From the NCBI GenBank assembly GCA_000447245.1, contig AUYT01000001.1, forward strand, positions 804,106 to 868,105: a DNA stretch of 64,000 nt, in the 5' to 3' direction. The notes beneath the pieces were generated by a model. The model saw only the letters and a list, made by a program, of their open reading frames with translations. It was not told the DNA's origin and ran no database searches. Below are positions 7,552 through 64,000 of this stretch, in pieces (position 1 is the first letter of the stretch; the number at the start of each line of letters is the position of its first letter). Made by a program: the position numbers and the translations under genes. This stretch comes from a candidate division Zixibacteria bacterium RBG-1 (GTDB lineage: Bacteria; Zixibacteria; MSB-5A5; DSPP01; RBG-1).

Positions 7552-7980
7552 ATGAGAATATCTCCATCCAGAGTAAAAATCCAGCTCCGGAAATTTAAGA
7601 ATACCCCTTTTGCCCAGAACTTGGGGATAAAGATTGTGAAATTGAAACCGGGTTACGCAGAATTATCTTTAGCTTACCAGAAAAGAATAACACAACCCTA
7701 CGGTTTTATGCATGGAGGGGCTATTGCGGCTCTGGCAGATACTGCGGCGGCTACCTCGATTCATACTCTCTTGGAGCCGGAGGATAAGATGGTGAGTATT
7801 GAGATGAAGGTTAATTATATTGCGCCGGTGACTAAGGGGAGGATTTTTGCGGGGGCTAAAGTTATTCATAAAGGGAGGAAGACCGCGGTGACGGATGTGG
7901 ATATTAAAGATAGTGAGGGGAAGCTGTGCGCTAAGTCGATTGTGACTTATATGCTTTTTCCGGGTGGGAAGATAAAGTAA
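7552..7980 (+). CDS. PaaI/YbgC-type hotdog-fold thioesterase
   Basis: 142 aa; motif FMHGGAIAALADTAAATS typical of the PaaI thioesterase family. Confidence 0.7.
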   Translation: MRISPSRVKIQLRKFKNTPFAQNLGIKIVKLKPGYAELSLAYQKRITQPYGFMHGGAIAALADTAAATSIHTLLEPEDKMVSIEMKVNYIAPVTKGRIFAGAKVIHKGRKTAVTDVDIKDSEGKLCAKSIVTYMLFPGGKIK

Positions 7981-7995
7981 AATTAAGTTCCTTAA

Positions 7996-8850
7996 ATGCA
8001 GATTTGTCTACTTAAAGCATTATTTATTTCCTCTCATATTTTTTTTGTGACATTACTGGTGGTACAACCGTCTCTGGCATATGATGACGAAGGAGCAGTC
8101 GGATTTCAATCCTCAAAGACCAAATTGCAGAGTTTGACTGACTCACTTCCATCACAACTTGAAAAGACAAAAAAACGTTCAGATTTCGGAGTATTAGTTA
8201 ATTTCCGTCTTGGTCTTGGGCGACATGATAACTTGACTAAAGCTAAATCATGGACAGGACCTGAGCTAAAATCAAGTAATACCCATTTTACAGTTTTGAT
8301 TGAGAGTGGCGTTACCTATAAAAAAGCCTCAAGCAGTTTTTTTATTTCTTACCTGGCACCTATTCCCAGGATACAAAATATTTCCGGTTATGGACACAAG
8401 GCAGAGGCGGTGGATATCGGTTTGTTATTTAAAATGAGATTATTATCAATGAAATCTAAGGTCAACTTCACACCAGCCGTAGGATATATGTGGGCGAAAG
8501 AAATTGCGAACATTTATGACCCCAATGGGTCGCAACCAGATTCACTGGACTTGACCTATGCAGATAACGGGATGTCCTTTGGTGTGGACTTTCAATATAG
8601 ACTTGCAAAAAGCGGAAGAGTATCAGAGCATAGAATAGTCTTTGGTTACTTGCACGAAAATCTACGTAGAGAAGCGGATAGATATCAGTTGGAATGGAGA
8701 TTTTTAGGTTTTAATAAAGAGAAAGGTCAGGGAGGAAAGATGCTTTTTGACGATTTTGACTTTCTCGCTATTGGTTTGGAGCATGTAAGATGGTCAGATG
8801 GTAGAAATGACTGGTTTTTGATAGGTTCTTTTGGGGGGGTATTTAAGTAA
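7996..8850 (+). CDS. hypothetical exported protein (possible outer-membrane protein)
   Basis: 284 aa, N-terminal hydrophobic signal, no recognisable catalytic motif. Confidence 0.35.
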   Translation: MQICLLKALFISSHIFFVTLLVVQPSLAYDDEGAVGFQSSKTKLQSLTDSLPSQLEKTKKRSDFGVLVNFRLGLGRHDNLTKAKSWTGPELKSSNTHFTVLIESGVTYKKASSSFFISYLAPIPRIQNISGYGHKAEAVDIGLLFKMRLLSMKSKVNFTPAVGYMWAKEIANIYDPNGSQPDSLDLTYADNGMSFGVDFQYRLAKSGRVSEHRIVFGYLHENLRREADRYQLEWRFLGFNKEKGQGGKMLFDDFDFLAIGLEHVRWSDGRNDWFLIGSFGGVFK

Positions 8851-48955: not shown

Positions 48956-50017
48956 ATGAAGAGTTTCAAGGTATTGCTTTTAGCCGCCATTTTTTTGTGT
49001 AGTATGGTATTAATCGCAGCTGCCTGCGAAAAATCCTCTCAGACTTCCACCGCCCAAGCCCAATGTGACCACCAAGTTTGCAGCAAAAAAACGGCCTTGA
49101 GCAGTTCAGATAAAGAGCATAATTGTTGTGCCTCTAAAGTAAAGTCCGCTTCCTCGCATTGTGAGGGAGTTAAAGAGAGTAACTTAAATTTGAAAGCCGG
49201 AACCTGTGAAGGGAAGTTTGATGGCTCACAGACCTCAGCCCAGAATTTGTCAACCAAAGCGGATAAATGCTGTCTTAAATCCAGCTTAGCCAATGTGGAA
49301 ACCTTAGAGCCGGCCCAAAAAGCTACTTCCAACAAAGAAGAAGCCGTTACCCAGAAGGCGGTCTTAAATGTTTCCGGGATGACCTGCGGCGGTTGCGCTT
49401 CGGAAGTGAAGTCGGCTTTGACCAAAGTGAATGGGGTTAAAGAGTGTAAAGTGAGCTGGAAAGAAGGGAAAGCGGAGGTGGGATTCACAGGTGATCCAGC
49501 TAAAGCCAATGAGTTAGTAAAAGCAGTAAACAAGACCGGTTTCAAAGCCAGTTTAGCCAGTGTGGAAAGTATCACAGCGATGGAAGATGATGAGGACGAT
49601 GCCTATGACGCCGAAGATGCTGATGATTCTGATGATGGCGAAGATGCAGATGCCAAGCAGATGGTGGTCAAAGAGAAAGAGACTTTCAAAGCTACCAGTT
49701 ACGTGTGTGAAGATTGTGGTTACAGACAAGCCAAAGGTGGAAAATGTCCCAGCGGTAACTGCAAGTTAACCAAAGTTACCGAGAAACACACTTTTGTGTG
49801 TGAAGAATGTGATTATGCCCAAGCCAAAGCCGGTGTCTGTCCGAGTCATAAAACTTCTTTGGTCGAATACTCAGTCAAATATGAATGTCCGGCCTGCCAC
49901 ATGGTTTACGAGACTGCGGGAGTCTGCTCCATGTGCAAAAAGCAGTTGCAGATGGTAACCGACGAACCGATTGCGACTGGTAAAAAGATGATGAGCAAAG
50001 AGAAAGCCACTTATTAA
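48956..50017 (+). CDS. Cys-rich heavy-metal-binding lipoprotein with HMA domain and three C-terminal Cx2C...Cx3-4C modules
   Basis: 353 aa; lipobox LIAAAC; HMA motif VSGMTCGGCAS; acidic linker EDDEDDAYDAEDADDSDDGEDAD; repeats YVCEDCGY..GKCPSGNC, FVCEECDY..GVCPSH, YECPACHM..GVCSMC. Confidence 0.7.
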   Translation: MKSFKVLLLAAIFLCSMVLIAAACEKSSQTSTAQAQCDHQVCSKKTALSSSDKEHNCCASKVKSASSHCEGVKESNLNLKAGTCEGKFDGSQTSAQNLSTKADKCCLKSSLANVETLEPAQKATSNKEEAVTQKAVLNVSGMTCGGCASEVKSALTKVNGVKECKVSWKEGKAEVGFTGDPAKANELVKAVNKTGFKASLASVESITAMEDDEDDAYDAEDADDSDDGEDADAKQMVVKEKETFKATSYVCEDCGYRQAKGGKCPSGNCKLTKVTEKHTFVCEECDYAQAKAGVCPSHKTSLVEYSVKYECPACHMVYETAGVCSMCKKQLQMVTDEPIATGKKMMSKEKATY

Positions 50018-50314: not shown

Positions 50315-50704
50315 ATGGAATTTGAGATAAAGAGAATCAACACCTGGTCAGCGGTCAAAATTTCTTTCGTGGTATATGGAGTCCTGGGGTTAGTCTTAGG
50401 GTTATTCTACGGTATGTTTATCTTCAGTTTGGGAGGGCTTCTGGGCGGGCTGGCCAATCAAGAGCTGGCTCCCTTTACGGGAATGTTTTCCAGCTTGGCT
50501 GGAGGGATTTTCTTCACTATTATAATTGGATTCTTTATTGCTTTCATAAGCGCGGTAGTTTATGGAGTAATTATTACCGCCATTGTGGTCTGGCTATACA
50601 ACCTATTTTCCAAGTGGACTGGAGGGATTAAAGTCAACTTGGAGAAGACCGTAACTATGGTCCCGGCCAGTTCCTCCTCAGAGTTAGGAGGTGCACCGGT
50701 TTAA
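50315..50704 (+). CDS. hypothetical integral membrane protein
   Basis: 129 aa; three to four Gly-rich hydrophobic helices; stop overlaps the gltX start. Confidence 0.4.
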   Translation: MEFEIKRINTWSAVKISFVVYGVLGLVLGLFYGMFIFSLGGLLGGLANQELAPFTGMFSSLAGGIFFTIIIGFFIAFISAVVYGVIITAIVVWLYNLFSKWTGGIKVNLEKTVTMVPASSSSELGGAPV

Positions 50705-52152
50705 TGTCTGAAATAAGAGTCAGAATCGCCCCCAGTCCTTCCGGTTACCTCCATGTAGGAACGGCACGGACCGCAGTTTACAACTGGCTTTTTGCCCAAA
50801 AGCATAAAGGGAAATTTGTTCTAAGAATCGAAGATACCGATGAAGCCCGCTCTTCCAATGAGATGGTCAAGGGAATCATTGATTCTCTGTTGTGGCTCGG
50901 CTTAAAATGGGACGAAGGACCCTTTTACCAATCCCAAAGAATGCCCTTGTATCAAAAATCCGCCCAGACGCTATTGGAGAATAAAAAGGCCTACTTCTGT
51001 TATTGCACACCGGAAGAATTGCAAACCAAAAGAGAAGAAGCCCAGAAGAAAAAAATCGCTTGGAAGTACGACCGAAAATGTTATTTTCTCTCCCAAGATG
51101 ATAAGCAAAATTTAGAGTCAAAAAAAGTTCCCAAAGCCATCAGATTGTTGGTCCCGGAAGGGAAGACATCTTTCCATGACCTTGTCTATCGGGATTTGGA
51201 AAAAGAAAATCGGAATATTGAAGACTTAATTCTGCTCCGCTCAGATGGGCGTCCTACTTATAATTTAGCTTGCGTGGTGGATGATTTGGAGATGAAAATT
51301 TCTCACGTCATCCGGGGGAACGACCATCTACCTAATACATTCAAACAGATTTTGATTTATCAAGCTTTGGGTGAAAAACCGCCGGCCTTTGCTCATTTAC
51401 CTTTAATTTTAGGTATGGATAGGGCCAAAATTTCCAAAAGATTTGACGCGGTTTCAGTCACCGATTACAGGGACCAGGGATTTTTGCCGGAAGCGGTGAT
51501 AAATTTTTTATCCCTTCTGGGCTGGTCCCCCAAAGATAATCAGGAGGTTTTATCTGTAGCTGAACTAATCGAAAAATTCTCTCTGGAAAATGTGCATCAG
51601 GCTAATCCGGTCTTCGATATCCAGAAATTGGAATGGATGAATGGGGAGTATATCAAAGCCCAGCCGGATGAAAAACTTCTGGGGCTGGTGAAAAAATTCT
51701 GGATAGAAGCCAGCCTGGTTACAGACGAAGATTTCTCCAAAAAGAAGGCATGGTTGTTGAAAATAGTGGGAATTCTGAAAGAACGATGCAAAAAGCTGAC
51801 TGATTTTGTGGATTTGGGGAAATTCTTTTTCACTTCTGAGTTTGAGTATGAAGAAAAAGCTCTGGGAAAGCAGTTTAAAAATTCGGAAGTTGTCGCAAGA
51901 TTGACCAAATTAAAAGAGAAATTCCAAGGACTTGATGGTTTTGATAAGGCCAAGTCAGAAGAATTGGTGAGAAATTTGGCTACTGACCTGAATGTGAAGC
52001 CGGCCGAGTTGATTCATCCTCTGCGTCTGGCGATTACGGGTATGTCTTTCGGTCCATCTTTGTTTGAGATTGTGGAGCTTTTGGGGAAGGAAGAGGTTGT
52101 CAAAAGATTGGAAAAAGCCGTAAATTTTATACACAATAAACTGGGAACGTAA
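50704..52152 (+). CDS. gltX: glutamate--tRNA ligase
   Basis: 482 aa; HIGH-class motif PSPSGYLHVGTAR and KMSKS-class motif KISKR. Confidence 0.9.
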   Translation: MSEIRVRIAPSPSGYLHVGTARTAVYNWLFAQKHKGKFVLRIEDTDEARSSNEMVKGIIDSLLWLGLKWDEGPFYQSQRMPLYQKSAQTLLENKKAYFCYCTPEELQTKREEAQKKKIAWKYDRKCYFLSQDDKQNLESKKVPKAIRLLVPEGKTSFHDLVYRDLEKENRNIEDLILLRSDGRPTYNLACVVDDLEMKISHVIRGNDHLPNTFKQILIYQALGEKPPAFAHLPLILGMDRAKISKRFDAVSVTDYRDQGFLPEAVINFLSLLGWSPKDNQEVLSVAELIEKFSLENVHQANPVFDIQKLEWMNGEYIKAQPDEKLLGLVKKFWIEASLVTDEDFSKKKAWLLKIVGILKERCKKLTDFVDLGKFFFTSEFEYEEKALGKQFKNSEVVARLTKLKEKFQGLDGFDKAKSEELVRNLATDLNVKPAELIHPLRLAITGMSFGPSLFEIVELLGKEEVVKRLEKAVNFIHNKLGT

Positions 52153-52213
52153 TTCCTGAACCGGTATTTTCTTGACAAGGTCTTAAATTTTTCTATTTTG
52201 ATTTTTGATTTTC

Positions 52214-52284
52214 TGGGGGATCGTCTAACGGCAGGACGAATGGCTCTGGACCATTTAATCGGGGTTCGAATCCCTGTCCCCCAG
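52214..52284 (+). tRNA. tRNA-Gln (anticodon CTG)
   Basis: Hand-folded: acceptor TGGGGGA/TCCCCCA, D-stem GTCT/GGAC, anticodon stem AATGG/CCATT with loop CTCTGGA, T-arm CGGGG-TTCGAAT-CCCTG; TTGACA -35-like hexamer about 25 nt upstream. Confidence 0.75.
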
Positions 52285-52418
52285 TTAATACCCCCGGTTC
52301 GAGAAACCTGAAATCGGTACGTCTGCATTTTTGAAATTTTACCTGACAGATAAAAAGTCGTTCGTAGTTATATTTAAGTTGCATTTTCTATCACCTTTTA
52401 TTAATTTCTGTATTCAAT

Positions 52419-53172: not shown

Positions 53173-54720
53173 ATGAGAAACAAAGTTGTGTTAGCAGTGG
53201 TATTTTTATTATGGATGGGACTTGCTTGGGCAGATACTCCCCAGCTGATTAATTTTCAGGGTCGACTGACTGATTCTTTGGGAAACCCTGTGAGTAATGG
53301 TGCCTATAGTTTACGCTTCAGAATCTACGATGATTCTTTGGCTGGTAATATTTTGTGGGAAGAGACCGACCCGGTTCAGGTAAAATCTGGACTTTTTACG
53401 GTGCTTCTGGGTTCAACTAATTCAATTCCGGATAGCGCTTTTTATTCTGCTAATCGCTGGTTAGGAATAAAAATCGGTACAAACCCTGAAATTACACCCA
53501 GACAGAGATTGGCTTCCGTGGGTTACAGCTATGTTTCTTCCCAATGGAACTCGGCTGACTCGAATCTCTATCGGATAAAGGGAAAAGTCGGCATTGGAAC
53601 TTCCACTCCCACCTTCGCAAAGCTGGAGGTCGTCGCCTCCAGTGGCATCGGCGTTTTCGCTTCGGGCAGCCCTGGCGTTTACGGCACCAGCTCATCAGGC
53701 ACTGGTGTTTTTGGCGAGGGTTCCTTGTACGGCCTTTACGGCAACAGCAACGGCACTGGAGTTTTCGGCACGGGCCCCCAGTACGGCGTTCACGGTGATG
53801 GGTACAACGGCACGGGCGTTTACGGCGAGGGCGACACGGCTGGCGTTAGCGGCCAAAGTATATCAGGCACTGGCGTTCGCGCCTTATCATATAACGGCCC
53901 CGGTGTTGTCGCTTCGGGTAGCACGTACGGCGTTTCCGGCACAAGCACCGGAGGCACTGGCGTTAGAGGCATTAGCGGCAGCGGCTATGGCGTTTATGCC
54001 TCGGGCGGCCCGAACGGCGTTGTCGCTTATGCAACTAATTCTGGCGGCTCGGCTGTTTACGGCTCGGGCGTCACGTATGGTGTTTACGGTGTGGCAAGCG
54101 CCAACAACGGCTCCGGTGTTTATGGTTCAAACGGCGGGAATCCCTCGACATATGCCGGCTACTTCGTCGGAACCGTTTACGTGGCCGGTGACTTTTATGC
54201 TGTAGGAACAACCAAAAGCGCCGCCGTGAAAGTCAACAACGGCGAATATCGGGTGCTTTATGCGCAGGAATCCCCCGAAAACTGGTTTGAGGATTTCGGC
54301 ACGGCCCAGTTGGTGAATGGCCAAGCCACTGTGAATATCGATCCCCTCTATGCCCAAACGGTAAATACGGCAGTAACCTATTACGTCTTCTTGACTCCGG
54401 AAGGGGATTGTCAGGGACTTTTCGTTACCGGCAAGACCCCGGCCTGTTTTGAGGTGCGGGAACTGCAAAACGGGAAATCCAACCTGTCGGTGAGTTATCG
54501 AATCGTGGCCAAAAGGAAGGGCTATGAAAACGTCCGCCTGCCCAAACTGCCCGGCCTAACTCCGGAAGAGGTTCAAGCCAAAGACGTCAAGCTCCGGGCC
54601 GAGATGGCCAAAGAAAACGCTGGGCACCTAGAGGAACAAGCCCGAATGGAGCAGGAACGTAAGAAAATGGAAGAAGAGCGCACCAAAATGGAGCAAGAAT
54701 GTTTGCTTCCCAAGCGGTAA
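53173..54720 (+). CDS. secreted glycine-rich repeat protein with GC-rich repetitive core and C-terminal coiled-coil
   Basis: 515 aa; signal peptide; about 20 tandem G-x-GV(Y/F)G-like repeats encoded by locally GC-rich DNA (53600-54200); C-terminal globular region and charged tail EEQARMEQERKKMEEERTKMEQE. Confidence 0.5.
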   Translation: MRNKVVLAVVFLLWMGLAWADTPQLINFQGRLTDSLGNPVSNGAYSLRFRIYDDSLAGNILWEETDPVQVKSGLFTVLLGSTNSIPDSAFYSANRWLGIKIGTNPEITPRQRLASVGYSYVSSQWNSADSNLYRIKGKVGIGTSTPTFAKLEVVASSGIGVFASGSPGVYGTSSSGTGVFGEGSLYGLYGNSNGTGVFGTGPQYGVHGDGYNGTGVYGEGDTAGVSGQSISGTGVRALSYNGPGVVASGSTYGVSGTSTGGTGVRGISGSGYGVYASGGPNGVVAYATNSGGSAVYGSGVTYGVYGVASANNGSGVYGSNGGNPSTYAGYFVGTVYVAGDFYAVGTTKSAAVKVNNGEYRVLYAQESPENWFEDFGTAQLVNGQATVNIDPLYAQTVNTAVTYYVFLTPEGDCQGLFVTGKTPACFEVRELQNGKSNLSVSYRIVAKRKGYENVRLPKLPGLTPEEVQAKDVKLRAEMAKENAGHLEEQARMEQERKKMEEERTKMEQECLLPKR

Positions 54721-55200: not shown

Positions 55201-55249
55201 CTGGTCCTTCAGTAATTATTCGCCATTTTATACTTTTTTAATTTTTTAC

Positions 55250-55290
55250 TTGACAAGCCCCTTTAACCAGCGTATTCATATATATGAATA
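55250..55290 (+). promoter_or_regulatory. putative promoter (TTGACA-17-TATTCA) overlapped by perfect 18-bp palindrome TATTCATATATATGAATA
   Basis: Palindrome at 55273-55290 overlaps the -10 element upstream of the Rrf2 gene; a related motif GTATATTCATATAATATGACAT is at 55871-55892 upstream of nirK. Confidence 0.45.
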
Positions 55291-55322
55291 CAAGGTCATA
55301 TATTCTGTAAAGGAAAACAATT

Positions 55323-55757
55323 ATGATATTTACACCCAGCTTTGAATACGCCCTGCAGGCTTTGATATATCTAGCCGGGAAGGGCAATGGCAGCCCGGTT
55401 CAAGTCAAAGATATTGCCCAGGCCGAGGATATTCCTAAGTATTTTTTGGCTAAAATTCTGAATCATTTAGATCACGAAAATTTAGTAAAATCAGTCAAAG
55501 GTCCAGGAGGAGGGTTTAAACTTAGCCGGCCGGCCAATCGAATCAGGGTGAGTGAACTAATAGATGTATTTGAAGGGCTTGACCACCTAGACAAAGTTTG
55601 TATTTTAGGGTTGGATAGGTGTCAGGAACCAAACAGCTGTGCTTTGCATAAAGAGTGGAAGCAATTTCGCCAGTTGTTGAAAAAAAGGGTACAAAAATTG
55701 ACCATAGCTGATATGTGGAAAATACGGGAAACCAAAAGAGATCTCAATAAAAAATAG
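55323..55757 (+). CDS. Rrf2 family transcriptional regulator (NsrR-like by context)
   Basis: 144 aa; Rrf2 wHTH (FEYALQALIYLA, GPGGGFKLSR); two of the usual three cluster-ligand Cys visible (CILGLDRCQ). Confidence 0.75.
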   Translation: MIFTPSFEYALQALIYLAGKGNGSPVQVKDIAQAEDIPKYFLAKILNHLDHENLVKSVKGPGGGFKLSRPANRIRVSELIDVFEGLDHLDKVCILGLDRCQEPNSCALHKEWKQFRQLLKKRVQKLTIADMWKIRETKRDLNKK

Positions 55758-55820
55758 AAGATGACAGCAAATTTTAAGCCCAAACTCAAAGCCGAGGGAT
55801 TAAATTTTTATAAAAAATAC

Positions 55821-55849
55821 TTGACAAGGGTTTTTTTATTGTGTATCTA
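55821..55849 (+). promoter_or_regulatory. putative sigma70-type promoter (TTGACA-17-TATCTA) upstream of nirK
   Basis: Consensus -35 hexamer; followed by the Rrf2-site-like motif at 55871-55892. Confidence 0.4.
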
Positions 55850-55987
55850 ATAATAGATGAGTAAAGGTTCGTATATTCATATAATATGACATAATAAAAG
55901 TGAGAGAAAAAACTATAACACTAGATAACTTTTAAAAGGAGGAGCTATGTCATCTAACACATTAAAGAGCTCAAACTACCAACTATT

Positions 55988-57040
55988 ATGGTGGTCTCTC
56001 TGATGTCGGTGGTTTTATTGTTGGGTATTAGCTGGCTGGTTTCAGGTTGTGGCGGTGAAGGGCAAACCGAATCTTTGAAAGAGGCAGTTTATGGCTCCCC
56101 GGAAGCTCAAATTTCAATGGAGAAACCGACTACTTCTGAACTGTATTCGGGAGCGGCTTTGAGCATTGCGCCGGAAGTAAACCCAGTACCCAATGCCAAA
56201 GTCCATGAGGTCCGTTTGGACGTGACCCATAGCGAAATTCAGGTAACCGAAGGGGTGAAATTCGTAGCCTGGACTTTTGGTGGAACTTTACCAGGTCCGG
56301 TATTGCACGTTCGTCAAGGAGACCGAGTTAGATTTACCATGACTAATCGGTCTGACCAAACCGTATCCTTTTCACCGCCCACTCCACATTCCATCGATTT
56401 CCATGCCGCCATGGTCAATCCGGCTGACAAATATAGAGAAGTCATTCCCGGAGCCACCATCAAATTTGAATGGGTAGCCAATTATCCCGGTGTATTTATG
56501 TATCACTGCGGCTCTCCCGCAATTTTACAACATATGATTTATGGCATGATTGGGATGACCATTGTGGAGCCGAAAAATGGTTACCCCACCAAGGTAGACC
56601 GGGAATTTGCTTTAGTACAAAGCGAGTTATACTTAACTAAAATGAAAAGCGGTATGTATCTGGTGGATATGGAAGCCGCCAAACAAAAGAAAGCCACCTA
56701 TGTAACTTTTAATGGAATTCCCAAACAGTATGTCGACAAGCCCTTACAAGCTAAACCCGGTGAAAGAGTCAGAATATATATACTAAATGCGGGACCAAAC
56801 GGAACTTCCAGTTTCCATGTGGTGGGTACTTTATTCGATAAAGCCTGGTTTGATGGAAATCCACAAAATGAGCAAAGAGGGTTACAGACTGTAATTTTAG
56901 GTTCCAGCAACGGCGCTATTGTTGAATTTGTTATCCCGGAAGCGGGAACTTATACTTTTGTGGACCATGAATTTGCGGATGTAGAGTTAGGAGCAGTCGG
57001 ACAAATAGTGGCTAAAAGTGAGGCGATAGCCAGTAAGTAA
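55988..57040 (+). CDS. nirK: copper-containing nitrite reductase (NO-forming)
   Basis: 350 aa; lipoprotein-type leader (LVSGC); type-1/type-2 Cu ligand contexts HSIDFHAA and YHCGSPAILQHMIYGM (Cys-x8-His-x4-Met); C-terminal HVVG and FVDHEF regions parallel known NirK. Confidence 0.85.
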   Translation: MVVSLMSVVLLLGISWLVSGCGGEGQTESLKEAVYGSPEAQISMEKPTTSELYSGAALSIAPEVNPVPNAKVHEVRLDVTHSEIQVTEGVKFVAWTFGGTLPGPVLHVRQGDRVRFTMTNRSDQTVSFSPPTPHSIDFHAAMVNPADKYREVIPGATIKFEWVANYPGVFMYHCGSPAILQHMIYGMIGMTIVEPKNGYPTKVDREFALVQSELYLTKMKSGMYLVDMEAAKQKKATYVTFNGIPKQYVDKPLQAKPGERVRIYILNAGPNGTSSFHVVGTLFDKAWFDGNPQNEQRGLQTVILGSSNGAIVEFVIPEAGTYTFVDHEFADVELGAVGQIVAKSEAIASK

Positions 57041-57054
57041 AACAGGTTAAACCG

Positions 57055-57612
57055 ATGCGCAAATTTAGTTCCATATTTATATTAATGATCTTACCATGTC
57101 TGGTGTGGGGAAATACCTCCCTAAACGCTCCTCCTAAACAGGTTAGGAGTTTTTCCCCAGGAACCAAGGGCACAGTACTGATATTTGTTTCCAGTCTGTG
57201 CCCTTGTACTGATGCCCACAGGATTATGGTGGAAAATTTAATGACTAGAATGCCAGCCAGTGGATTCAAATTTTATGCGGTGTTCTCCAATAAAGGGGAA
57301 ACTACCGAACTGATAGAGTATTTCTATCGGACCATTGGCTGGCAGATGCCTTATATTTTGGATAGTAGCGGAACTTTGCAAAAAAAATATAAAGCCACCC
57401 ATACCCCTCAAGCCTTTGTGATAAGTCCTCAAAATAAAGTGCTTTATAGAGGACCAATCGACGACAGTAACTTAAATCAGGGACGAGTAGATAATCCTTA
57501 TTTAAAAAATGCTTTAGAGGATCTTTTGGCAGGAAGAGCTGTTAAAGCTTCTGAGGTGGCTGGGACCGGCTGCTGGATTGTTAGAAGTATTTCTTCAAAA
57601 GAACTGAAATAG
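57055..57612 (+). CDS. thioredoxin-fold protein (SCO/TlpA-like), exported
   Basis: 185 aa; signal peptide; Cys motif VSSLCPCTDAH in a thioredoxin-like context. Confidence 0.45.
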   Translation: MRKFSSIFILMILPCLVWGNTSLNAPPKQVRSFSPGTKGTVLIFVSSLCPCTDAHRIMVENLMTRMPASGFKFYAVFSNKGETTELIEYFYRTIGWQMPYILDSSGTLQKKYKATHTPQAFVISPQNKVLYRGPIDDSNLNQGRVDNPYLKNALEDLLAGRAVKASEVAGTGCWIVRSISSKELK

Positions 57613-57733
57613 AACCCGAGATGAATATAAAGCAGATTAAAACCTTAAAGATTGTGAAAAAAATCACAAAAAAAGGTAAAAAAACCTAGGTCAATTTAGA
57701 AAGTAAAAACTGTTGATAAAGAGAGGCTTGAAA

Positions 57734-58246
57734 ATGAAAAACTCAATGAAAACAATAGCTGGTTTAGCCATTGTTCTGGGATTCTTGATATTATCCGGAT
57801 GTAGTAAAAATACAAAAGTAATCTCCGGTCCCTCAAATCCTTTTGTTCTTTCAGTTCAACCAACTAATGGAGCCGTTAATGTCCCAATTTCATCTTCAGT
57901 GCAGATAATTTTCGCCTCTCCTATGGATACTCTTTCAGTAGCTCAAAACTTCTGCTTGATAGGAGGAGAGATGATGTATCAAGTGATGGATTCTTTGGAG
58001 CATGCTATGATGGATTATTCAGAGATGATGGAGTGGATGCATTCAGAGTCTTTTACTGGACAGTTTCAATGGAATTCAAAAAGAGATTCTTGTCTATTTT
58101 TACCAGATTCCAGCCTGATTCATCATACCGAATACATGATTTATATGGGAAGGAATATGGAGAGTAGGCATCGTGATATGATGATGGAACACCGAGAGAT
58201 GATGGGAGAAGATTTTATAACTCATTTTACAACCGAGGATAACTAA
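57734..58246 (+). CDS. Met/His-rich periplasmic lipoprotein (putative Cu(I)-binding)
   Basis: ORF 57713..58246; likely ATG 57734 (AGAGAGG RBS); lipobox LSGC; Met-rich stretches MMYQVMDSLEHAMMDYSEMMEWMH and HRDMMMEHREMMGED. Confidence 0.5.
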   Translation: MKNSMKTIAGLAIVLGFLILSGCSKNTKVISGPSNPFVLSVQPTNGAVNVPISSSVQIIFASPMDTLSVAQNFCLIGGEMMYQVMDSLEHAMMDYSEMMEWMHSESFTGQFQWNSKRDSCLFLPDSSLIHHTEYMIYMGRNMESRHRDMMMEHREMMGEDFITHFTTEDN

Positions 58247-58404
58247 CTCTTAGAAGAAGGAGGAAAAATGAAAAGAGTGTTAAAACTTTTATAGATTTAG
58301 AATTAACTGTCAAGAGTAATATTTTTTTCTTGACAAATTAATTCTGCTGGATGATATTTAGAGAAGTTAAAAAAAATTGAAACAAGGACGGGGAAGGAGG
58401 ACGA

Positions 58405-59319
58405 ATGAAAAAGAAAAATAAAGTTTGGGTAGGTCTGGGGGTACTCTATCTGGTTGTTTTTCTATTGTGTTGGGGAACGATAACTTCCAGAAGTCAAGAA
58501 ACTTCTGCTGGAGCTACCTATGTCGGCTCCGAGTTGTGCTTAACCTGCCACCAGGATCTTTTGGCAACCTACGAACACACCATCCATTACAAAATCGCCC
58601 AGGATCCCAGAAATGAACTGGAGCAAAAAGGGTGTGAATCCTGCCATGGTCCAGGAAGTATGCACACTGAAGACCCTAGTAATGTGAAAATTCCAGTTTC
58701 TTTTGCTAAAAAGACAAAAACTCCGGTAAAAGATCAGAATGAAGCCTGCTTACAATGTCATGAAAAAACCCACTTGAACTGGTCGGGTAGCATCCATGAC
58801 TCCAGAGAGTTAGCTTGTGCCACTTGCCATCATATTAAAGAAAATCTTACAGATAGATTTCTGTTGGCTAAGGCTAACCAGTCGGATTTATGTGGCTCCT
58901 GCCATAGGGCTCAAAAAGCCAAAACCATGAAGGCCTATCACATGACGGTAAGGGATGGAAAATTAGAATGCACTTCTTGTCATAATCCTCATGGAACTAA
59001 TACAGATAAGCTGTTAGTGGAGAACTCAGTCAATGAAACCTGCTATAAATGTCACGCTGAAAAAAGAGGCCCTTTTTTGTGGCCGCATCCTCCGGTGACG
59101 GAGAATTGTCTGAATTGTCATGACCCCCACGGCTCTAACCATAACAAGATGTTGCTTACCAAAGTGCGCCGGATCTGTCAGAGGTGCCATGTTGAAACCA
59201 GGCATCCCACCACCCCTCAGACTGCCAATAACCTTTATCTCATCAACCATGCCTGTGCTAACTGCCATTCTCAAATTCATGGTTCTAACCACCCCTCTGG
59301 GGTAAGATTTCTCAGATAG
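58405..59319 (+). CDS. decaheme c-type cytochrome (MtrA/DmsE/PioA-like)
   Basis: 304 aa; signal peptide; ten CxxCH motifs (CLTCH, CESCH, CLQCH, CATCH, CGSCH, CTSCH, CYKCH, CLNCH, CQRCH, CANCH); RBS GGAAGGAGG. Confidence 0.85.
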   Translation: MKKKNKVWVGLGVLYLVVFLLCWGTITSRSQETSAGATYVGSELCLTCHQDLLATYEHTIHYKIAQDPRNELEQKGCESCHGPGSMHTEDPSNVKIPVSFAKKTKTPVKDQNEACLQCHEKTHLNWSGSIHDSRELACATCHHIKENLTDRFLLAKANQSDLCGSCHRAQKAKTMKAYHMTVRDGKLECTSCHNPHGTNTDKLLVENSVNETCYKCHAEKRGPFLWPHPPVTENCLNCHDPHGSNHNKMLLTKVRRICQRCHVETRHPTTPQTANNLYLINHACANCHSQIHGSNHPSGVRFLR

Positions 59320-59327
59320 GAGGAAAA

Positions 59328-61538
59328 ATGAAAAAAAAGAGCTTATTTTTTTTAATCCTAAGTTTAACCCTTTTTTTGCCGGTATATAGCCAGACTACCT
59401 CCAGCGGAGATGTCGATATAGGCTTCTATCAGATTTCGGGATATACCTTATCCAACAAGTACTTAGAATACAGAGACTATAGAGAAGGAATTGCTTTAAA
59501 TGGATTATCTTATTTTCTGGGAAGCAAAATCGGGTTTCTGGATTTAAAAGCTACGGGAATTGCTAGAAATGACCAAACTTCTGCTTTGCGTTTAGGAAAA
59601 TACGGAAGATATTATCTCAATTTGAGCTGGGACCAGACTCCCCATATTTTTAGCAACCACTCTAAACTTTTCTTCAGCGAAACTCAAAAGGGAGTCTATA
59701 CACTTGCCGATTCAATCCAAGCCCGCCTGCAGGGAGCTTCCGATGCTCAAATACGGAGTTTGATGGCCAGCTACCTTTCACAAGCCCAGAGGTTCCCCCT
59801 CTCCTATCGCAGAGATAAGGCCATCGGTGAGGTAAAGATTTCTCCCACTCGGGATATAGCGCTAAAGGTTTCTTATACTAACGAGAAAAAGAAAGGATAC
59901 AAAGCCACCAGCGGGACCCCCGGAGGTTTTAACATGATTGACCTGCCGGAGCGGATTGATTTTTTGACTCATCAGGTTGATGCGCAAGCGCAGTATTCTC
60001 AAAAAAATTGGTCGATCATTGGAGATGTGGGAGTCTCGGTTTTCGACAATAAGCTGGAAGCTTTGAACTGGGATAATCCCTTCCGGCTCACCGACACAAC
60101 CGGCGGGGCCACCAGGACTTCTAAGATAAGAATGGGTGTAGCCCCGGATAACTGGTCCGGGAACACCAGTATTACCGGTTTTGCCAAGTTACCCTTTTAT
60201 AACATTCAATCCCGGGCTACCATAGGTTATGGAATAACCAGACAAGACGAAAACTTCTTGCCCCATACCAGTAACTCGGCTTTAGTGGATACCCTTGACC
60301 CCTTGATTCTGCCCAAGTCCAGTCTGGAAGGAGAAATCCGGACCGTAACCGGAAGTTATTTTGTCACCGCCCGACCGATTAAAGAACTCTTTTTGGAAGC
60401 CAATTTTAAATACGATGAATTCGACAATCAGACCGAAGAGATTATTTTCCCCAGCCGGGTGTCACAGGGCGATCAATCGCTCGACACCTTAGGCCGAGCC
60501 AGTTTACCATATGAATATATCAAGAGATACTACGGCCTCAAAGCCAATTTCAAACCGATCTCTTATGTCTCTGTAGGTCTGGGGTACAATTATGAACGCT
60601 TTTCGCGTGATTTCAGGAATGTGAGGAAGTCCGGCGAGAACAGCTATCGCTTTTCATTGGATTTGTTCCCGCTCTCCTGGGTAACGGTTCGCAACAGTTA
60701 TACCCGTTCAGAGCGAAAGGCCGAAGCTTACAACGCGGATGCAGTGGAAGAGACTTTTCCGGAAGGGGAGGCGGTGGTTAATCCACTCTTAGAAGAACTG
60801 AGGAGATTTGACCAGGCTGACCGAAATCGGGATAGATTTGTCTCTCAGGCATCGCTCGAGGTCTTTGATAAAGTGGATTTGATGTTGGGGGCTCATATTC
60901 AGTTGGATGATTATCCAGAGAGTCATTATGGGGTAAAAGAGGGTCGGTCCACGGCCCTTTCTGCGGGAGTTAATTACTATCCGATTCCCCGATTCAGTTT
61001 TTATGGAGATTACACCCGAGAATATTTGTTCACAGATATGCAGTCCCGCTATAGAAATGTGGTGGGTGGTGTCGGGACAGACGACACTTTGGATGATTGG
61101 GGTACCAAGGTCAGAGATTTGACAGATCTCTTTTCACTCGGATTTCTAGTGGACGTTATTCCCCAAAAATTGAGTTGGCAAGTCAACTACACCTATTCTT
61201 ACTCCTGGGGCAAAAACGACAACTATTTCACTCCTGGTGGAGCGCGATCCGGTGGTGGAGTGGATCCGGCCTACGATGATTCCTTACTCTGGCCTATGAC
61301 CAAAAATGAACTGCAGACAGCTAATTCCTTCATTAGGTATAAGATTTCAGAAAAGGTTTCGGTCTGGGGTGAGTACCGCTTCGAGAAATATTTTATCAAG
61401 GATTTCACCATAGATGACGTTGATCCCCAGGAGTTAGGAACCGGTGGTACTCAGGGAACTCGGTCGATATTTTTAGCTGCCACTCAGCCGGATTATGAAG
61501 GGCATTTATTTGGCTTGAAGTTGGCTTATTCATTTTGA
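59328..61538 (+). CDS. large outer-membrane beta-barrel protein (MtrB/PioB-like by context)
   Basis: 736 aa; signal peptide; long run of amphipathic beta-strands; C-terminal LKLAYSF with terminal Phe; follows the decaheme gene by 8 nt. Confidence 0.5.
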   Translation: MKKKSLFFLILSLTLFLPVYSQTTSSGDVDIGFYQISGYTLSNKYLEYRDYREGIALNGLSYFLGSKIGFLDLKATGIARNDQTSALRLGKYGRYYLNLSWDQTPHIFSNHSKLFFSETQKGVYTLADSIQARLQGASDAQIRSLMASYLSQAQRFPLSYRRDKAIGEVKISPTRDIALKVSYTNEKKKGYKATSGTPGGFNMIDLPERIDFLTHQVDAQAQYSQKNWSIIGDVGVSVFDNKLEALNWDNPFRLTDTTGGATRTSKIRMGVAPDNWSGNTSITGFAKLPFYNIQSRATIGYGITRQDENFLPHTSNSALVDTLDPLILPKSSLEGEIRTVTGSYFVTARPIKELFLEANFKYDEFDNQTEEIIFPSRVSQGDQSLDTLGRASLPYEYIKRYYGLKANFKPISYVSVGLGYNYERFSRDFRNVRKSGENSYRFSLDLFPLSWVTVRNSYTRSERKAEAYNADAVEETFPEGEAVVNPLLEELRRFDQADRNRDRFVSQASLEVFDKVDLMLGAHIQLDDYPESHYGVKEGRSTALSAGVNYYPIPRFSFYGDYTREYLFTDMQSRYRNVVGGVGTDDTLDDWGTKVRDLTDLFSLGFLVDVIPQKLSWQVNYTYSYSWGKNDNYFTPGGARSGGGVDPAYDDSLLWPMTKNELQTANSFIRYKISEKVSVWGEYRFEKYFIKDFTIDDVDPQELGTGGTQGTRSIFLAATQPDYEGHLFGLKLAYSF

Positions 61539-61766
61539 GAAATGATCACAAGAGCTTGACTACCAACTGGATAGGAGGGGTATTTAACATATATTAAGAG
61601 TGTTTGTGTCGACATAAGTCATTTAGACATACGACGTTGTAATTTACCGACGTTGGTCTAGAAGTGCAAATGAGGGAAATATTGTGAATTTTTTCACTTG
61701 CTAAGCAGATCTTACGTATGTATTATAAAGAATAGATAGAAACAGGTCTAAAAAGGAGGATAAAGT

Positions 61767-62174
61767 ATGAAGCTCAAAGAACTGGTCTTACTGATTTTGG
61801 TACTCGCAATTTCGGTCTTCGTTACTCGGTTTTTGGTTACAGTGGAACCGGCCCATGGAACAACACCGACCGGAAAAGAACTGTATCAAAAACATTGCGC
61901 TTCTTGTCATGGCGCGGATGCTAAGGGCGTGGAGAAGATGGCTAAAATGTTAAAAGTCACCATCAGGGATTTGACCAAGCTGGCTAACATTCCAGATTCC
62001 ACCAAAACCTGGCCGAAAATTATCGCAGACGGAAAAGCCAAGATGCCGGCTTTTAATAAAAAACTGAAAGAGGCAGAAGTGAGTTCCGTTATAGCCTACA
62101 TTCATACCTTGGCGCCGGCTTCAGGCAAGAGCGAGACTCCAGCAGCCAAGGATACCACTAAGGTTACAAAATAG
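61767..62174 (+). CDS. monoheme class I cytochrome c
   Basis: 135 aa; N-terminal membrane anchor or signal; single CASCHG motif; Lys/Thr-rich C-terminal tail. Confidence 0.7.
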   Translation: MKLKELVLLILVLAISVFVTRFLVTVEPAHGTTPTGKELYQKHCASCHGADAKGVEKMAKMLKVTIRDLTKLANIPDSTKTWPKIIADGKAKMPAFNKKLKEAEVSSVIAYIHTLAPASGKSETPAAKDTTKVTK

Positions 62175-62205
62175 AAACCAGAACCCAAATTTTTTAGGAG
62201 CAAAA

Positions 62206-62631
62206 ATGAAAAGCAAAAATTGGACAATATATCTGAGCCTCGTAATAATTACATCCTTAGCAGTTTTTTTGATTTTTAGAACTGGTCAGAGCCAAGCCCA
62301 AAAAGTGACTGCCAAAGATTTATACAAGAAAAGCTGTGCCGCCTGTCATGGAGAAGATGGCAAGGGTGTGGAAAAGATGGCCAAGATGCTGAAAGCCACC
62401 ATTCGAGACGTTACCAAACTAACTATGACAGCAGAGCTGTCCAAAGAATGGGATAAGGTCACTAAAGACGGAAAAGGAAAGATGCCGGCTTACAAAGCCA
62501 AACTCAAACCAGCTGAAATCGATTCGGTCCTGGCTTATATGCAAACCATGACTGTTAAACCGACTAAGTCAGAAACGGCTGAAGCTAAGGATACCACTAA
62601 GGTTTCTAAAGATACGACCAAAGTAAAATAG
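62206..62631 (+). CDS. monoheme class I cytochrome c (paralogue)
   Basis: 141 aa; CAACHG; core closely parallels the preceding gene (GKGVEKMAKMLKATIRD, DGKGKMPAYKAKLK). Confidence 0.7.
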   Translation: MKSKNWTIYLSLVIITSLAVFLIFRTGQSQAQKVTAKDLYKKSCAACHGEDGKGVEKMAKMLKATIRDVTKLTMTAELSKEWDKVTKDGKGKMPAYKAKLKPAEIDSVLAYMQTMTVKPTKSETAEAKDTTKVSKDTTKVK

Positions 62632-63257
62632 ATTTAGTTTTTAAAAATGGAATAGTAGGTTAAACCCAAGAGACTTTTCTTTGGAGGTGAAGTCTGTCTG
62701 AATAAATTATGCGGCTTTCCTGCTATTTCATCATTTTATAGATTAAATTCTCAAAGATTTCTTTCAGCAAAACAATCCTAATCCAGAACGTTTCTTAAAT
62801 GTACTTCTGTAAGAGGGGAGAGGTTTTTTACGGAAATAAATAAGGAGTTTGGGGTTCAATCATAGCCAATTCCATCTTACCCTTAAGCGGGCAAATTCTT
62901 TAATCTTTTTTACCTTCAGTTTCCTGTTCAATTTCAACCTCTTCTTTTTTTGGCTTTTCCGGTCAGCCAAGCCCAGTTCATAGGATAAACCCCGGGCTTA
63001 AATATCACCGCATAAAAGTGCCAGATAAAAATGGCTGTAAAAAAATCCGTCCTATTGTGAAAAATTTCACTAAATTTGAAAAAATGTCCTATCAAGTTGG
63101 GTTTACAATAAGTCAGGTATTTAGGTCACCGTAACTTCTTGTCAATCATAAGAATACAGACACGAAAACCTTCTTCCGCTGGCATTTCTTTTGCTATTTA
63201 AAGATTCAGTCAGTCTCTGAAGAGATTGATTCTGAAAAAGTAGGAAAGGAAGGCACG

Positions 63258-64000
63258 GTGGGAAATATCAATCGCCGCACGTTCTTAAAGTTTTCAGTAA
63301 TTGCCGCTACCTTGGGTGCAGCACCATCAGCCAAGAGTCAAGAGAATTTTTCCGGCTGGCCGGAAAGATATGGAATGCTGACAGACACTACCCTCTGCAT
63401 CGGTTTAAACTGTCGCAAATGCGAAGAAGCCTGCAAGAAGGTCAACAACCTCTCCCGAAAAAATCTTAATCTGTCAGACAACAGTGTATTTGAGCACAAG
63501 CGCCGTACTGATCCGGAAAACTATACCGTTGTCAACCGTTTTCCAAATCCCAATAAGCCTGAAACACCCTACTATGTAAAGAAGCAGTGTATGCACTGTG
63601 ATGAGCCAGCCTGCGCTTCAGCTTGTTTGGTCAAAGCTTTCAAAAAGACGCCGGAAGGACCGGTAATATATAACAAAGATGTATGTATAGGCTGCCGCTA
63701 TTGTATGGTGGCCTGCCCCTTTGGGATTCCATCTTACGATTACTTTGATGCCTATACTCCCCAGGTCAGGAAGTGCACCATGTGTTACGACCGCATCCAA
63801 CAGGGAAAAATTCCGGCTTGTGCTGAAATATGTCCCCAAGAAGCCATCACCTTCGGCAAGCGCAAAGACCTTATCGCCTTGGCTCGGGAGAGAATCCGCA
63901 GTCACCCAGAGCGCTATCATCCTCACATTTTCGGAGAAGAGGAAGCCGGCGGAACCAGCTGGCTGTACTTGACCGGACTTGACTCTGTTCAGCTGGGCTT
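63258..64000 (+). CDS. Tat-exported 4Fe-4S ferredoxin-type subunit (NrfC/HybA/PsrB/ActB-like), partial at window end
   Basis: GTG start after AGGAAAGGAAGG; twin-arginine leader NRRTFLKF; four Cys clusters (CIGLNCRKCEEAC, CMHCDEPACASAC, CIGCRYCMVACP, CTMCYDR...CAEICP); runs off the window. Confidence 0.7.
   Translation, partial: MGNINRRTFLKFSVIAATLGAAPSAKSQENFSGWPERYGMLTDTTLCIGLNCRKCEEACKKVNNLSRKNLNLSDNSVFEHKRRTDPENYTVVNRFPNPNKPETPYYVKKQCMHCDEPACASACLVKAFKKTPEGPVIYNKDVCIGCRYCMVACPFGIPSYDYFDAYTPQVRKCTMCYDRIQQGKIPACAEICPQEAITFGKRKDLIALARERIRSHPERYHPHIFGEEEAGGTSWLYLTGLDSVQLG

Follow-up and report, generated by a model that had tools for sequence, protein, structure and literature searches.

In Fe(II)-oxidising bacteria the genes of the outer-membrane electron conduit follow the layout mtoA-mtoB-mtoD-cymA (PMC10654088). 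In 2013 Castelle et al. (Nat Commun 4:2120, PMC3903129) described an "Mtr" gene cluster from the candidate division Zixibacteria bacterium RBG-1, comprising MtrA and MtrB homologs, two monoheme cytochromes, several multiheme cytochromes and PetAB. Extracellular cytochromes were lacking, and the authors favoured Fe(II) oxidation, possibly nitrate-dependent by way of an NXR-like enzyme; the copper nitrite reductase NirK is treated in a separate paragraph of their main text, unconnected to the Mtr cluster. The same locus lies in the 55-64 kb region of the stretch of RBG-1 DNA analysed here (64,000 nucleotides (nt), "the window"), where a nirK cassette stands directly upstream of the conduit genes. 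By exact look-up the conduit proteins, an outer-membrane barrel and a decaheme cytochrome, are identical to RBG1_1C00001G0769 and G0768, and the annotated "Copper nitrite reductase" of RBG-1, EQB63186.1, shares a 90% cluster with the NirK of the window.

The enzymatic nature of nitrate- and nitrite-dependent Fe(II) oxidation, and the route of electrons to the nitrogen-oxide reductases, are matters of debate; for Ferrigenium straubiae, the periplasmic stretch of the chain from Fe(II) to nitrogen oxides is still described as unknown in a 2026 preprint. Comparison of the RBG-1 locus with its relatives suggests that an MtoAB-type conduit and NirK are joined by a common pool of periplasmic cytochrome c, through which electrons most likely pass from Fe(II) to nitrite. 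Both the coupling and its direction are read from synteny, and the interpretation is given a probability of roughly 0.45. The MtrAB-type conduit of RBG-1 is already known and the core of the locus is not new; what may be new is the link of this conduit clade to nitrite reduction by comparative evidence. The linkage of nirK across lineages, the replacement of NirK by NrfHA, the insertion of a Cyc2-type gene, the Rrf2 palindromes and a frameshift at the start of nirK are all absent from the main text of the 2013 paper, and a literature search found no paper linking nirK to the RBG-1 cluster or to any other mto/pio-type cluster. An initial annotation of this DNA, made from the sequence letters, had not recognised the arrangement as a standard described one. 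For the conduit cluster that judgement gives way to the 2013 publication; for the link to NirK, which the main text of that paper does not draw, it stands.

The conduit and its neighbouring nitrite reductase

All nine listed open reading frames (ORFs) are present on the + strand of the 55-64 kb region, and the ORF list and profile searches bear out the component identities and gene order of the initial annotation (lengths in amino acids, aa):

55323-55757, + strand: Rrf2-family transcription regulator (PF02082, E 7e-31; TIGR00738, 110 bits, above cut-off)
55988-57040, + strand: NirK, class II (Geobacillus/AniA type) lipoprotein, assigned from Protein Data Bank (PDB) matches, Cu ligands and an LVSGC lipobox
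57055-57612, + strand: periplasmic thioredoxin-fold protein (AhpC-TSA / Redoxin / DUF6436; LCPC motif)
57734-58246, + strand: Big_5 lipoprotein with a Met/His-rich C-terminal half (PF13205, E 3.8e-6)
58405-59319, + strand: decaheme cytochrome of the DmsE/MtrA family (304 aa, exactly 10 CxxCH)
59328-61538, + strand: MtrB/PioB-family outer-membrane beta-barrel, sheath of the decaheme (736 aa; PF11854, TIGR03509)
61767-62174, + strand: class I monoheme cytochrome c, paralog 1 (PF13442, PF00034; N-terminal hydrophobic anchor or signal)
62206-62631, + strand: class I monoheme cytochrome c, paralog 2 (50% identical to paralog 1)
63258-64000, + strand: four-cluster Fe-S protein exported by twin-arginine translocation (Tat), HmcB/HybA-like (GTG start; cut by the window end)

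On TIGR03508 the decaheme cytochrome reaches 254.8 (cut-off 192.2), and its best match among solved structures is MtrA (6r2q_A, E 5.9e-60 over residues 40-300). The barrel gene starts 8 nt past the decaheme stop. Its product is matched by PF11854 (MtrB_PioB) at E 7.7e-93 and scores 259.2 on TIGR03509, for which the cut-off is 240.05; the only sequence match in the PDB is MtrB (6r2q_B, E 1e-16). An AlphaFold2 (AF2) model of the barrel built on 12 sequences is of low confidence, with a mean predicted local distance difference test score (pLDDT) of 49.5; it contains 22 long strands between residues 85 and 691, and residues 1-137 and 690-736 are not confidently modelled. Such a model is usable for ranking folds only and is too poor for a strand count to be set against the 26 strands of a conduit barrel wide enough for the decaheme. 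In that ranking, by Foldseek, 6r2q_B comes top at E 1.7e-19, against about 1e-6 for the next structures, which are 22-strand TonB-dependent receptors. The initial annotation had read the pair as a porin-cytochrome conduit, correctly: both proteins pass the MtrA/DmsE and MtrB/PioB cut-offs, and the profile searches that it had proposed give the 736-aa protein the MtrB/PioB similarity on which its reading depended. The assignment of decaheme and barrel to such a conduit is secure, and electron transfer through it is predicted on this basis. Genes past the window end were read from an identical contig (L001), and neither the 55-64 kb region nor 10 kb downstream on L001 holds a gene for an MtrC/OmcA-type extracellular decaheme. 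MtrC-domain matches within the decaheme are partial and only faint or below cut-off. A gene for a CymA/NapC-type tetraheme cytochrome is likewise absent from the window and from the downstream part of L001.

NirK matches Geobacillus NirK best among PDB entries (3x1e and 3wkq, E about 5e-70). Over its two cupredoxin domains the motifs HSIDFH (134), YHCGSPAILQHMIYGM (172), SFHVVG (275) and VDHEF (325) align to the copper and catalytic residues of 3x1e, which accounts for all type 1 copper ligands (His, Cys, His, Met), all type 2 copper ligands (three His) and the catalytic Asp and His. On the NCBIfam equivalog model TIGR02376 the protein reaches 191.1 bits, below the cut-off of 296.3, a low score that is consistent with divergence of this NirK from the enzymes captured by the model. 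On PDB matches and ligands together, NirK of the window is assigned as a class II copper nitrite reductase of AniA/Geobacillus type. Some of its homologs bear a fused C-terminal cytochrome c domain, and Geobacillus NirK takes its electrons from a membrane-tethered class I cytochrome c551.

Cytochromes of that general class follow the barrel. It is paralog 2 that relatives retain immediately 3' of the barrel gene. Paralog 1 comes closest, among PDB entries, to CcoP, the bc1 cytochrome c subunit, c6 and Kuenenia c552, and it is a candidate periplasmic carrier between the decaheme, NirK and inner-membrane complexes. Homology of these cytochromes to MtoD was considered and dropped: PDB searches returned no MtoD entry, either with the window protein (E<=0.01) or with a Betaproteobacteria homolog from L016 (E<=1), so that "MtoD-like" applies to them by position only. 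Both paralogs end in Lys/Thr-rich low-complexity tails with AKDTTKV-type repeats (62120-62174 and 62560-62631).

Two further genes fill the space between nirK and the conduit. The thioredoxin-fold gene is found 3' of nirK in L004, L009, L010, L011, L020, L021, L022, L024, L047 and L048, and its product is the constant partner of this NirK clade, with a putative role in copper or thiol handling. The Big_5 lipoprotein ORF is open from 57713, ATG 57734 being the likelier start; its last 97 residues (81-177) hold 16 Met and 7 His, and the protein is a putative Cu(I)-binding accessory.

Recurrence of the linkage in relatives

Relatives of the barrel were taken from assemblies, reference genomes and metagenomes, and the genes of the module were mapped at each locus by tblastn. 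Linkage means nirK within 10 kb of the barrel, and the clade consists of barrels at least 35% identical to the query. By these definitions nirK is linked to the clade in 7 lineages and in three gene orders, and it lies within 10 kb of none (0/~10) of the more distant barrels (<=32% identity):

Barrel >=35%; RBG-1, L024, L004/5, L009: nirK upstream of the conduit
Barrel >=35%; L010, L011: nirK downstream, past a Rieske/cytochrome b unit and multiheme genes
Barrel >=35%; L029: barrel, cytochrome c, NapC-like, nirK
Barrel >=35%; L006: NrfH-NrfA in place of NirK
Barrel >=35%; L007/8/36: no nitrite reductase within 10 kb
Barrel <=32%; L012-L019, L032, L040 (NC10, Methylomirabilota, Ca. Manganitrophus, Gemmatimonadota, Myxococcota, Betaproteobacteria, others): no nirK nearby

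For two single-copy genes in a genome of about 2 Mb, the chance of lying <=10 kb apart would be about 1%. A rough NirK tree splits the conduit-linked enzymes into two clades, and unlinked ones fall between the two. Two predictions made from this tree held: the P0058 gene adjoins a Rieske/cytochrome b unit as in L011, its contig ending there (Rieske/cytochrome b beside Rrf2-nirK-redoxin in L047), and the P0036 gene is unlinked, like that of its sister L020.

The nitrite reductase of the module can also be of a different kind. In L006 (2009-8922) the order is Rrf2-decaheme-barrel-cytochrome c-NrfH-NrfA-NapC-like, with a barrel 64% and an Rrf2 protein 79% identical to those of RBG-1. NrfH of this locus exceeds the cut-off of its equivalog model, and the match of NrfA to that of Wolinella has E 6e-67. 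Heme 1 of the L006 NrfA has the motif CLHCH where Wolinella has CxxCK.

The slot between the thioredoxin-fold gene and the decaheme gene varies, holding the Big_5 gene alone in RBG-1, a gene for a monoheme protein and Big_5 in L024, and a Cyc2-type gene in L004 and L009. The last of these encodes 416-438 aa and stands between nirK-trx and the decaheme gene in L004/5 (L004 7059-8375) and L009 (2012-3277). The family has at least 320 unannotated members in Acidobacteria, Ignavibacteria, Kryptoniota and Bacteroidota, with the consensus AMPNFARKYGxxCxxCHTxIPRLN. Published criteria for Cyc2 are the motif AXPXFAR[Q/K][T/Y], a single CXXCH, PXL at +4, a length of at least 365 aa and a 16-strand porin (Keffer et al. 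2021, PMC8406198). The family consensus agrees with these in its motif, its single heme site and its PXL position. In the L009 copy the sequence is AMPNFARQT..CTGCH..PKL, an exact match to the motif, and in the L004 copy N occupies the [Q/K] position. The Cyc2-type protein as modelled by AF2 (pLDDT 88.8) has the 16-strand porins PorB, DcaP and OprP as its top PDB folds. A likeness to OprP is also reported for Cyc2; the comparison concerns the relatives L004/5 and L009, the gene being absent from the window. Outside this clade, linkage of Cyc2 and nirK is absent in the two contexts sampled, L045 and L046.

Some further genes of these loci deserve mention in their own right. On L024 the monoheme protein between the thioredoxin-fold and Big_5 genes (7551-8186) is an extra 211-aa membrane-anchored protein with one CxxCH (CLNCH). 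Directly 5' of Rrf2-nirK on L004 (1-3750) is a Psr/ACIII-like module, of which L044 has a similar set: it encodes a molybdopterin oxidoreductase, 4Fe-4S and NrfD-type subunits, and a c-type cytochrome of 396 aa that has four CxxCH. On an unrelated metagenome contig (L046, 8001-15120) the gene of a Cyc2-like protein precedes genes for a 185-aa multiheme protein, a 747-aa multiheme/Ni_hydr_CYTB fusion, a 689-aa multiheme protein and a separate cytochrome b.

Putative regulatory signals, downstream modules and surroundings

The spacers of the locus contain the following signals:

55247-55291, + strand: promoter-like block and palindrome 5' of the Rrf2 gene (TACTTGACAAG at 55247-55257, GTATTCATATATATGAATAC at 55272-55291)
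55818-55890, + strand: nirK promoter-like block and putative operator (TACTTGACAAG at 55818-55828, -10-like TAATAAT near 55848, TTCATATAATATGAC at 55876-55890)
58322-58363, + strand: decaheme promoter-like block (TTTTTTTCTTGACAAAT, 17-nt spacer, GATATT; consensus 10/12)
62646-62732, + strand: long imperfect hairpin, then a U-rich stretch, directly 3' of the second cytochrome c gene

The element GTATTCATATATATGAATAC is a perfect 20-bp palindrome that overlaps the -10 position and is a candidate autoregulatory Rrf2 operator. With at most one mismatch the TTCATAT/ATATGAA motif has only two sites in the 64-kb window, one 5' of the Rrf2 gene and one 5' of nirK; with at most two mismatches there are 4 window sites, against about 3.3 expected in shuffles, and the two-mismatch site at 57070, inside the coding start of the thioredoxin-fold gene, is treated as coding conservation. 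The nirK promoter and operator block is conserved 5' of nirK in L009 and L024, and 5' of the decaheme gene in L006. The Rrf2 protein probably binds the TTCATAT..ATATGAA palindromes before its own gene and nirK. In Neisseria and Nitrosomonas, Rrf2 repressors of NsrR type control aniA/nirK. Features of that type are present here in part: an Rrf2 fold, three cysteines (Cys93/100/106) that are potential Fe-S cluster ligands, and palindromes 5' of the regulator's own gene and of nirK. On the NsrR model NF008240 the protein reaches 60.7 bits (cut-off 182), IscR scores higher at 77.9, and the NsrR, IscR and RirA equivalog models all give scores far below cut-off.

The TTCATAT/ATATGAA palindrome was found 5' of none of the decaheme, first cytochrome c and Fe-S genes in the window. 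In L006 the spacer between Rrf2 and the decaheme gene is a composite, its 5' part aligning with the nirK promoter and operator and its 3' part with the decaheme promoter, so that the conduit and NrfHA genes there sit directly behind the putatively Rrf2-controlled promoter. Between the nirK, thioredoxin-fold, Big_5, decaheme, barrel and cytochrome c genes no intrinsic terminators emerge, a consensus scan performing at chance and the spacer folds being non-significant. The hairpin at 62646-62732 (z -3.18; 1/200 shuffles folds as well) is a candidate terminator of the conduit transcription unit. An Rfam scan of the 228-nt and 626-nt gaps gives no structured RNA, the only Rfam match being a tRNA-Gln at 52213-52285, and the 626-nt spacer contains no ORF of at least 60 aa. 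Two promoters probably serve nirK and the conduit, and read-through from one unit into the other is possible. These signals decide neither way on the separate, unrelatedly regulated transcription units that would have counted against the initial annotation.

Beyond that spacer, 626 nt after the second cytochrome c gene, the Fe-S gene begins. Its product has an RRTFLK motif, 16 Cys in four groups and a C-terminal transmembrane (TM) helix, is 315 aa long on L001, and as the partial protein of the window scores 344 bits on the HmcB model NF045715 (cut-off 420). The initial annotation had proposed a look downstream of the window for a quinol-oxidising membrane subunit, and a quinone-interacting NrfD/HmcC-like protein of 390 aa does lie just past the window end on L001, with 522.9 bits on the HmcC model against a cut-off of 550. 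A 13-CxxCH cytochrome follows, its match to the 16-heme HmcA being weak (41 bits). L001 also encodes a 647-aa fusion of 11 CxxCH motifs with a five-helix FdnI-type cytochrome b and, on the opposite strand, a roughly 19-heme cytochrome whose membrane domain is similar.

The remainder of the window (1-55 kb) consists of housekeeping genes and holds no further denitrification genes. The tRNA-Gln mentioned above, with anticodon CTG, lies directly 3' of the glutamyl-tRNA synthetase gene (50704-52152). At 53173-54720 a secreted protein of 515 aa has Gly-rich YGV.G/TGV.G repeats, a Glu/Lys-rich C-terminus and no Pfam match; local GC content there is 0.565, against about 0.40 in the flanks. At 48956-50017, about 5 kb upstream of the Rrf2 gene, a 353-aa Cys-rich protein combines one heavy-metal-associated (HMA) domain, an Asp/Glu-rich linker and several C-terminal CxxC pairs; it may handle metals and is not counted here as part of the cluster. 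An 833-aa ORF at 23189-25690 is also without a Pfam match.

Competing readings and comparison with known systems

The locus can be described as a respiratory island of three putative units. The first would be an Rrf2-controlled cassette of Rrf2, nirK, the thioredoxin-fold gene and the gene of the Met/His-rich lipoprotein. The second, an MtoAB/PioAB-type conduit, would comprise the MtrC-less porin-decaheme pair and the two class I monoheme cytochromes c, behind a promoter-like block of its own. The third would supply the quinone modules downstream: a separate Hmc-like module of Fe-S protein, NrfD subunit and 13-heme cytochrome, then the CbcL-like multiheme/cytochrome b fusions. In the proposed mechanism the barrel-enclosed decaheme would trade electrons with a redox partner outside the cell, for which Fe(II) is the likeliest candidate, and hand them to the periplasmic monoheme cytochromes c. 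This cytochrome c pool would feed the lipoprotein NirK, a periplasmic sink reducing nitrite to NO, and would also join the inner-membrane modules and thus the quinone pool. Conduit and nitrite reductase would then be the two ends of one periplasmic cytochrome c network.

The initial annotation had suggested an electron path linking the conduit to nitrite reduction. That suggestion gains from the linkage in 7 lineages, the NrfHA swap and the insertion of a Cyc2-type gene, and loses from the occurrence of the cassette on its own and from the separate promoter-like block of the decaheme gene. As to direction, the presence of a Cyc2-type gene beside nirK and an MtoAB-type pair in relatives, together with the lack of an MtrC-type gene, tilts the reading towards Fe(II) uptake. 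The nitrite/NO couple, near +0.35 V, lies above the potentials of Fe(II)/Fe(III) and of Cyc2. Values given for these are 0 +/- 0.1 V for Fe(II)/Fe(III) at neutral pH and +0.208 V for Cyc2 (PMC8406198). A direct electron path from iron to nitrite is put forward as a testable idea. Its most ambitious form would have Zixibacteria and their relatives encode a dedicated Fe(II):nitrite oxidoreductase supercluster, in which an MtoAB-type conduit (with Cyc2 in some) passes electrons through class I cytochromes c to NirK (NrfA in one lineage) under an Rrf2 sensor; in that form the idea is doubtful.

Several observations weigh against the coupling of Fe(II) to nitrite through a shared cytochrome c pool, and they are taken up here with the other readings that they favour or touch. 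One is energetic: a purely periplasmic chain from Fe(II) to NirK by itself conserves no energy. Another is phyletic, the clade members L007/8/36 having a close barrel and no nitrite reductase within 10 kb.

Could electrons leave the cell by this conduit? In outward extracellular electron transfer, quinol would be oxidised by the CbcL-like, Hmc-like and Rieske/cytochrome b modules, electrons would exit via decaheme and barrel, with Fe(III), Mn(IV), humics or a partner cell as acceptor, and NirK (NrfA in L006) would be a parallel terminal reductase on the same cytochrome c pool, with no extracellular donor. This is the best-surviving alternative, and an unlikely one. In Geobacter, CbcL and ImcH are the quinol oxidases for outward electron transfer. 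The fusions by the conduit (11 CxxCH with 5 TM helices, about 19 CxxCH with a TM domain) and, in relatives, a NapC/NrfH-type protein (about 480 aa, 2-3 TM helices) resemble these two proteins. The nearest solved relatives of the conduit proteins are MtrA and MtrB, FeGenie places Zixibacteria among the taxa with porin-cytochrome operons assigned to iron reduction, and Castelle et al. left soluble Fe(III) reduction open (PMC3903129). Against outward flow, the cluster is without an extracellular MtrC/OmcA-type cytochrome, two relatives have a Cyc2-type Fe(II) oxidase gene inserted in it, and the order decaheme-barrel-monoheme cytochrome c (then NapC-like in relatives) is that of mtoA-mtoB-mtoD-cymA in Fe(II) oxidisers. 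CbcL-like fusions also accompany the Cyc2-like gene in the unrelated L046, so their presence does not by itself point to outward flow; electrons could run either way through the CbcL- and Hmc-like quinone modules.

A reading that is less likely still denies any electron-transfer link: Rrf2-nirK-trx would be an autonomous cassette against nitrite or NO stress, adjacent to the conduit through shared ancestry and island architecture. Rrf2-nirK-trx does occur among housekeeping genes without a conduit within 10 kb in L020, L022 and L048, the last being another Zixibacteria genome (RBG_16_48_11), and nirK stands alone in L023; the cassette is in this sense autonomous and its association with the conduit facultative. 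It has its own regulator and operator. The promoter-like block of the decaheme gene is conserved in L024, L009 and L006 and lacks the Rrf2 palindrome in the window, so that nirK and the conduit may be regulated separately. RBG-1 has no known NO reductase, and its authors deemed a denitrifying role for NirK unlikely and considered detoxification a possible one (PMC3903129). The frameshifted start of nirK in RBG-1, described below, points the same way. Set against all this, the linkage persists through three gene orders and two separate NirK clades, NrfHA occupies the module in L006 behind a promoter and operator of nirK type, and NirK needs a periplasmic donor, for which the small carriers encoded in the vicinity are limited to the conduit's two monoheme cytochromes.

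The start of nirK itself bears on RBG-1 alone. In orthologs, which have 361-364 aa and an N-terminus such as MSFNTLKRLKLPTIM, translation starts 14 codons upstream, at an ATG with a strong ribosome-binding site (RBS). In RBG-1 a 1-nt deletion near 55969 (AAAGAGCTC against AAAGAGGCTC in orthologs) puts this canonical, RBS-preceded ATG at 55947 out of frame, leaving the following feature at the start:

55947-56003, + strand: 18-codon ORF from the canonical nirK start, overlapping the nirK ATG at 55988

The ATG at 55988 has no RBS, and the protein begun there has no charged (Lys/Arg) n-region. The same deletion is seen in four further assemblies of this population (L001, L002, L003, L026), two of them from separate sequencing runs, and a 98%-identical relative (P0029) keeps the long form. 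For NirK of the RBG-1 population this may mean translation by coupling, weak expression or an early stage of decay. That nirK is decaying or poorly expressed here, with the coupling of the relatives weakened or lost in RBG-1, is compatible with the other readings and quite improbable, given that the remaining ORF is intact with every ligand present, that it retains the signal-peptide hydrophobic core and lipobox, and that the overlap of the 18-codon ORF with the nirK ATG could permit translational coupling.

If a shared cytochrome c pool does join the MtoAB-type conduit to NirK, the locus would give biological nitrite-dependent Fe(II) oxidation a route defined at the level of genes, and the recurrent linkage of nirK (or nrfHA) with an MtoAB-type conduit, and with Cyc2 in some, supplies four to six genes, a set small enough to test. 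Such coupling would also sharpen what is known of metabolism in the Zixibacteria, a group abundant in the sediments of aquifers and in marine sediments. Should the linkage prove purely architectural, what is left is the candidate iron-cycling cluster of the 2013 paper.

Among described systems, MtrCAB of Shewanella (6R2Q) is the nearest solved relative of both decaheme and barrel. Unlike it, the window has no MtrC/OmcA-type decaheme, and the identity of the barrels in structural alignment is about 19%. In gene order the locus is closer to MtoAB-MtoD-CymA of Sideroxydans lithotrophicus ES-1 and PioAB of Rhodopseudomonas palustris TIE-1, where, as in the window, the decaheme gene lies directly 5' of the MtrB/PioB barrel gene; shared with these systems are the lack of an MtrC-type outer cytochrome and the small class I monoheme cytochrome c gene after the barrel. 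In the relatives L006, L010, L011, L025 and L029 only, the likeness to Mto extends to the next gene, which encodes a NapC/NrfH-type tetraheme cytochrome (197 aa). The window differs from Mto and Pio in having no CymA-like gene, in its Hmc-like FeS/NrfD/13-heme module and CbcL-like fusions, in belonging to a different phylum, and in the attached nitrite reductase cassette, of which no report was found for mto/pio clusters. NirK of the window is like Geobacillus NirK (3X1E, 3WKQ) and Neisseria AniA (1KBV) in its cupredoxin domains, copper ligands, catalytic Asp and His, and lipoprotein signal. What sets the cassette apart from these class II copper nitrite reductases is that it is always accompanied by a thioredoxin-fold partner and sits in an extracellular-electron-transfer island.

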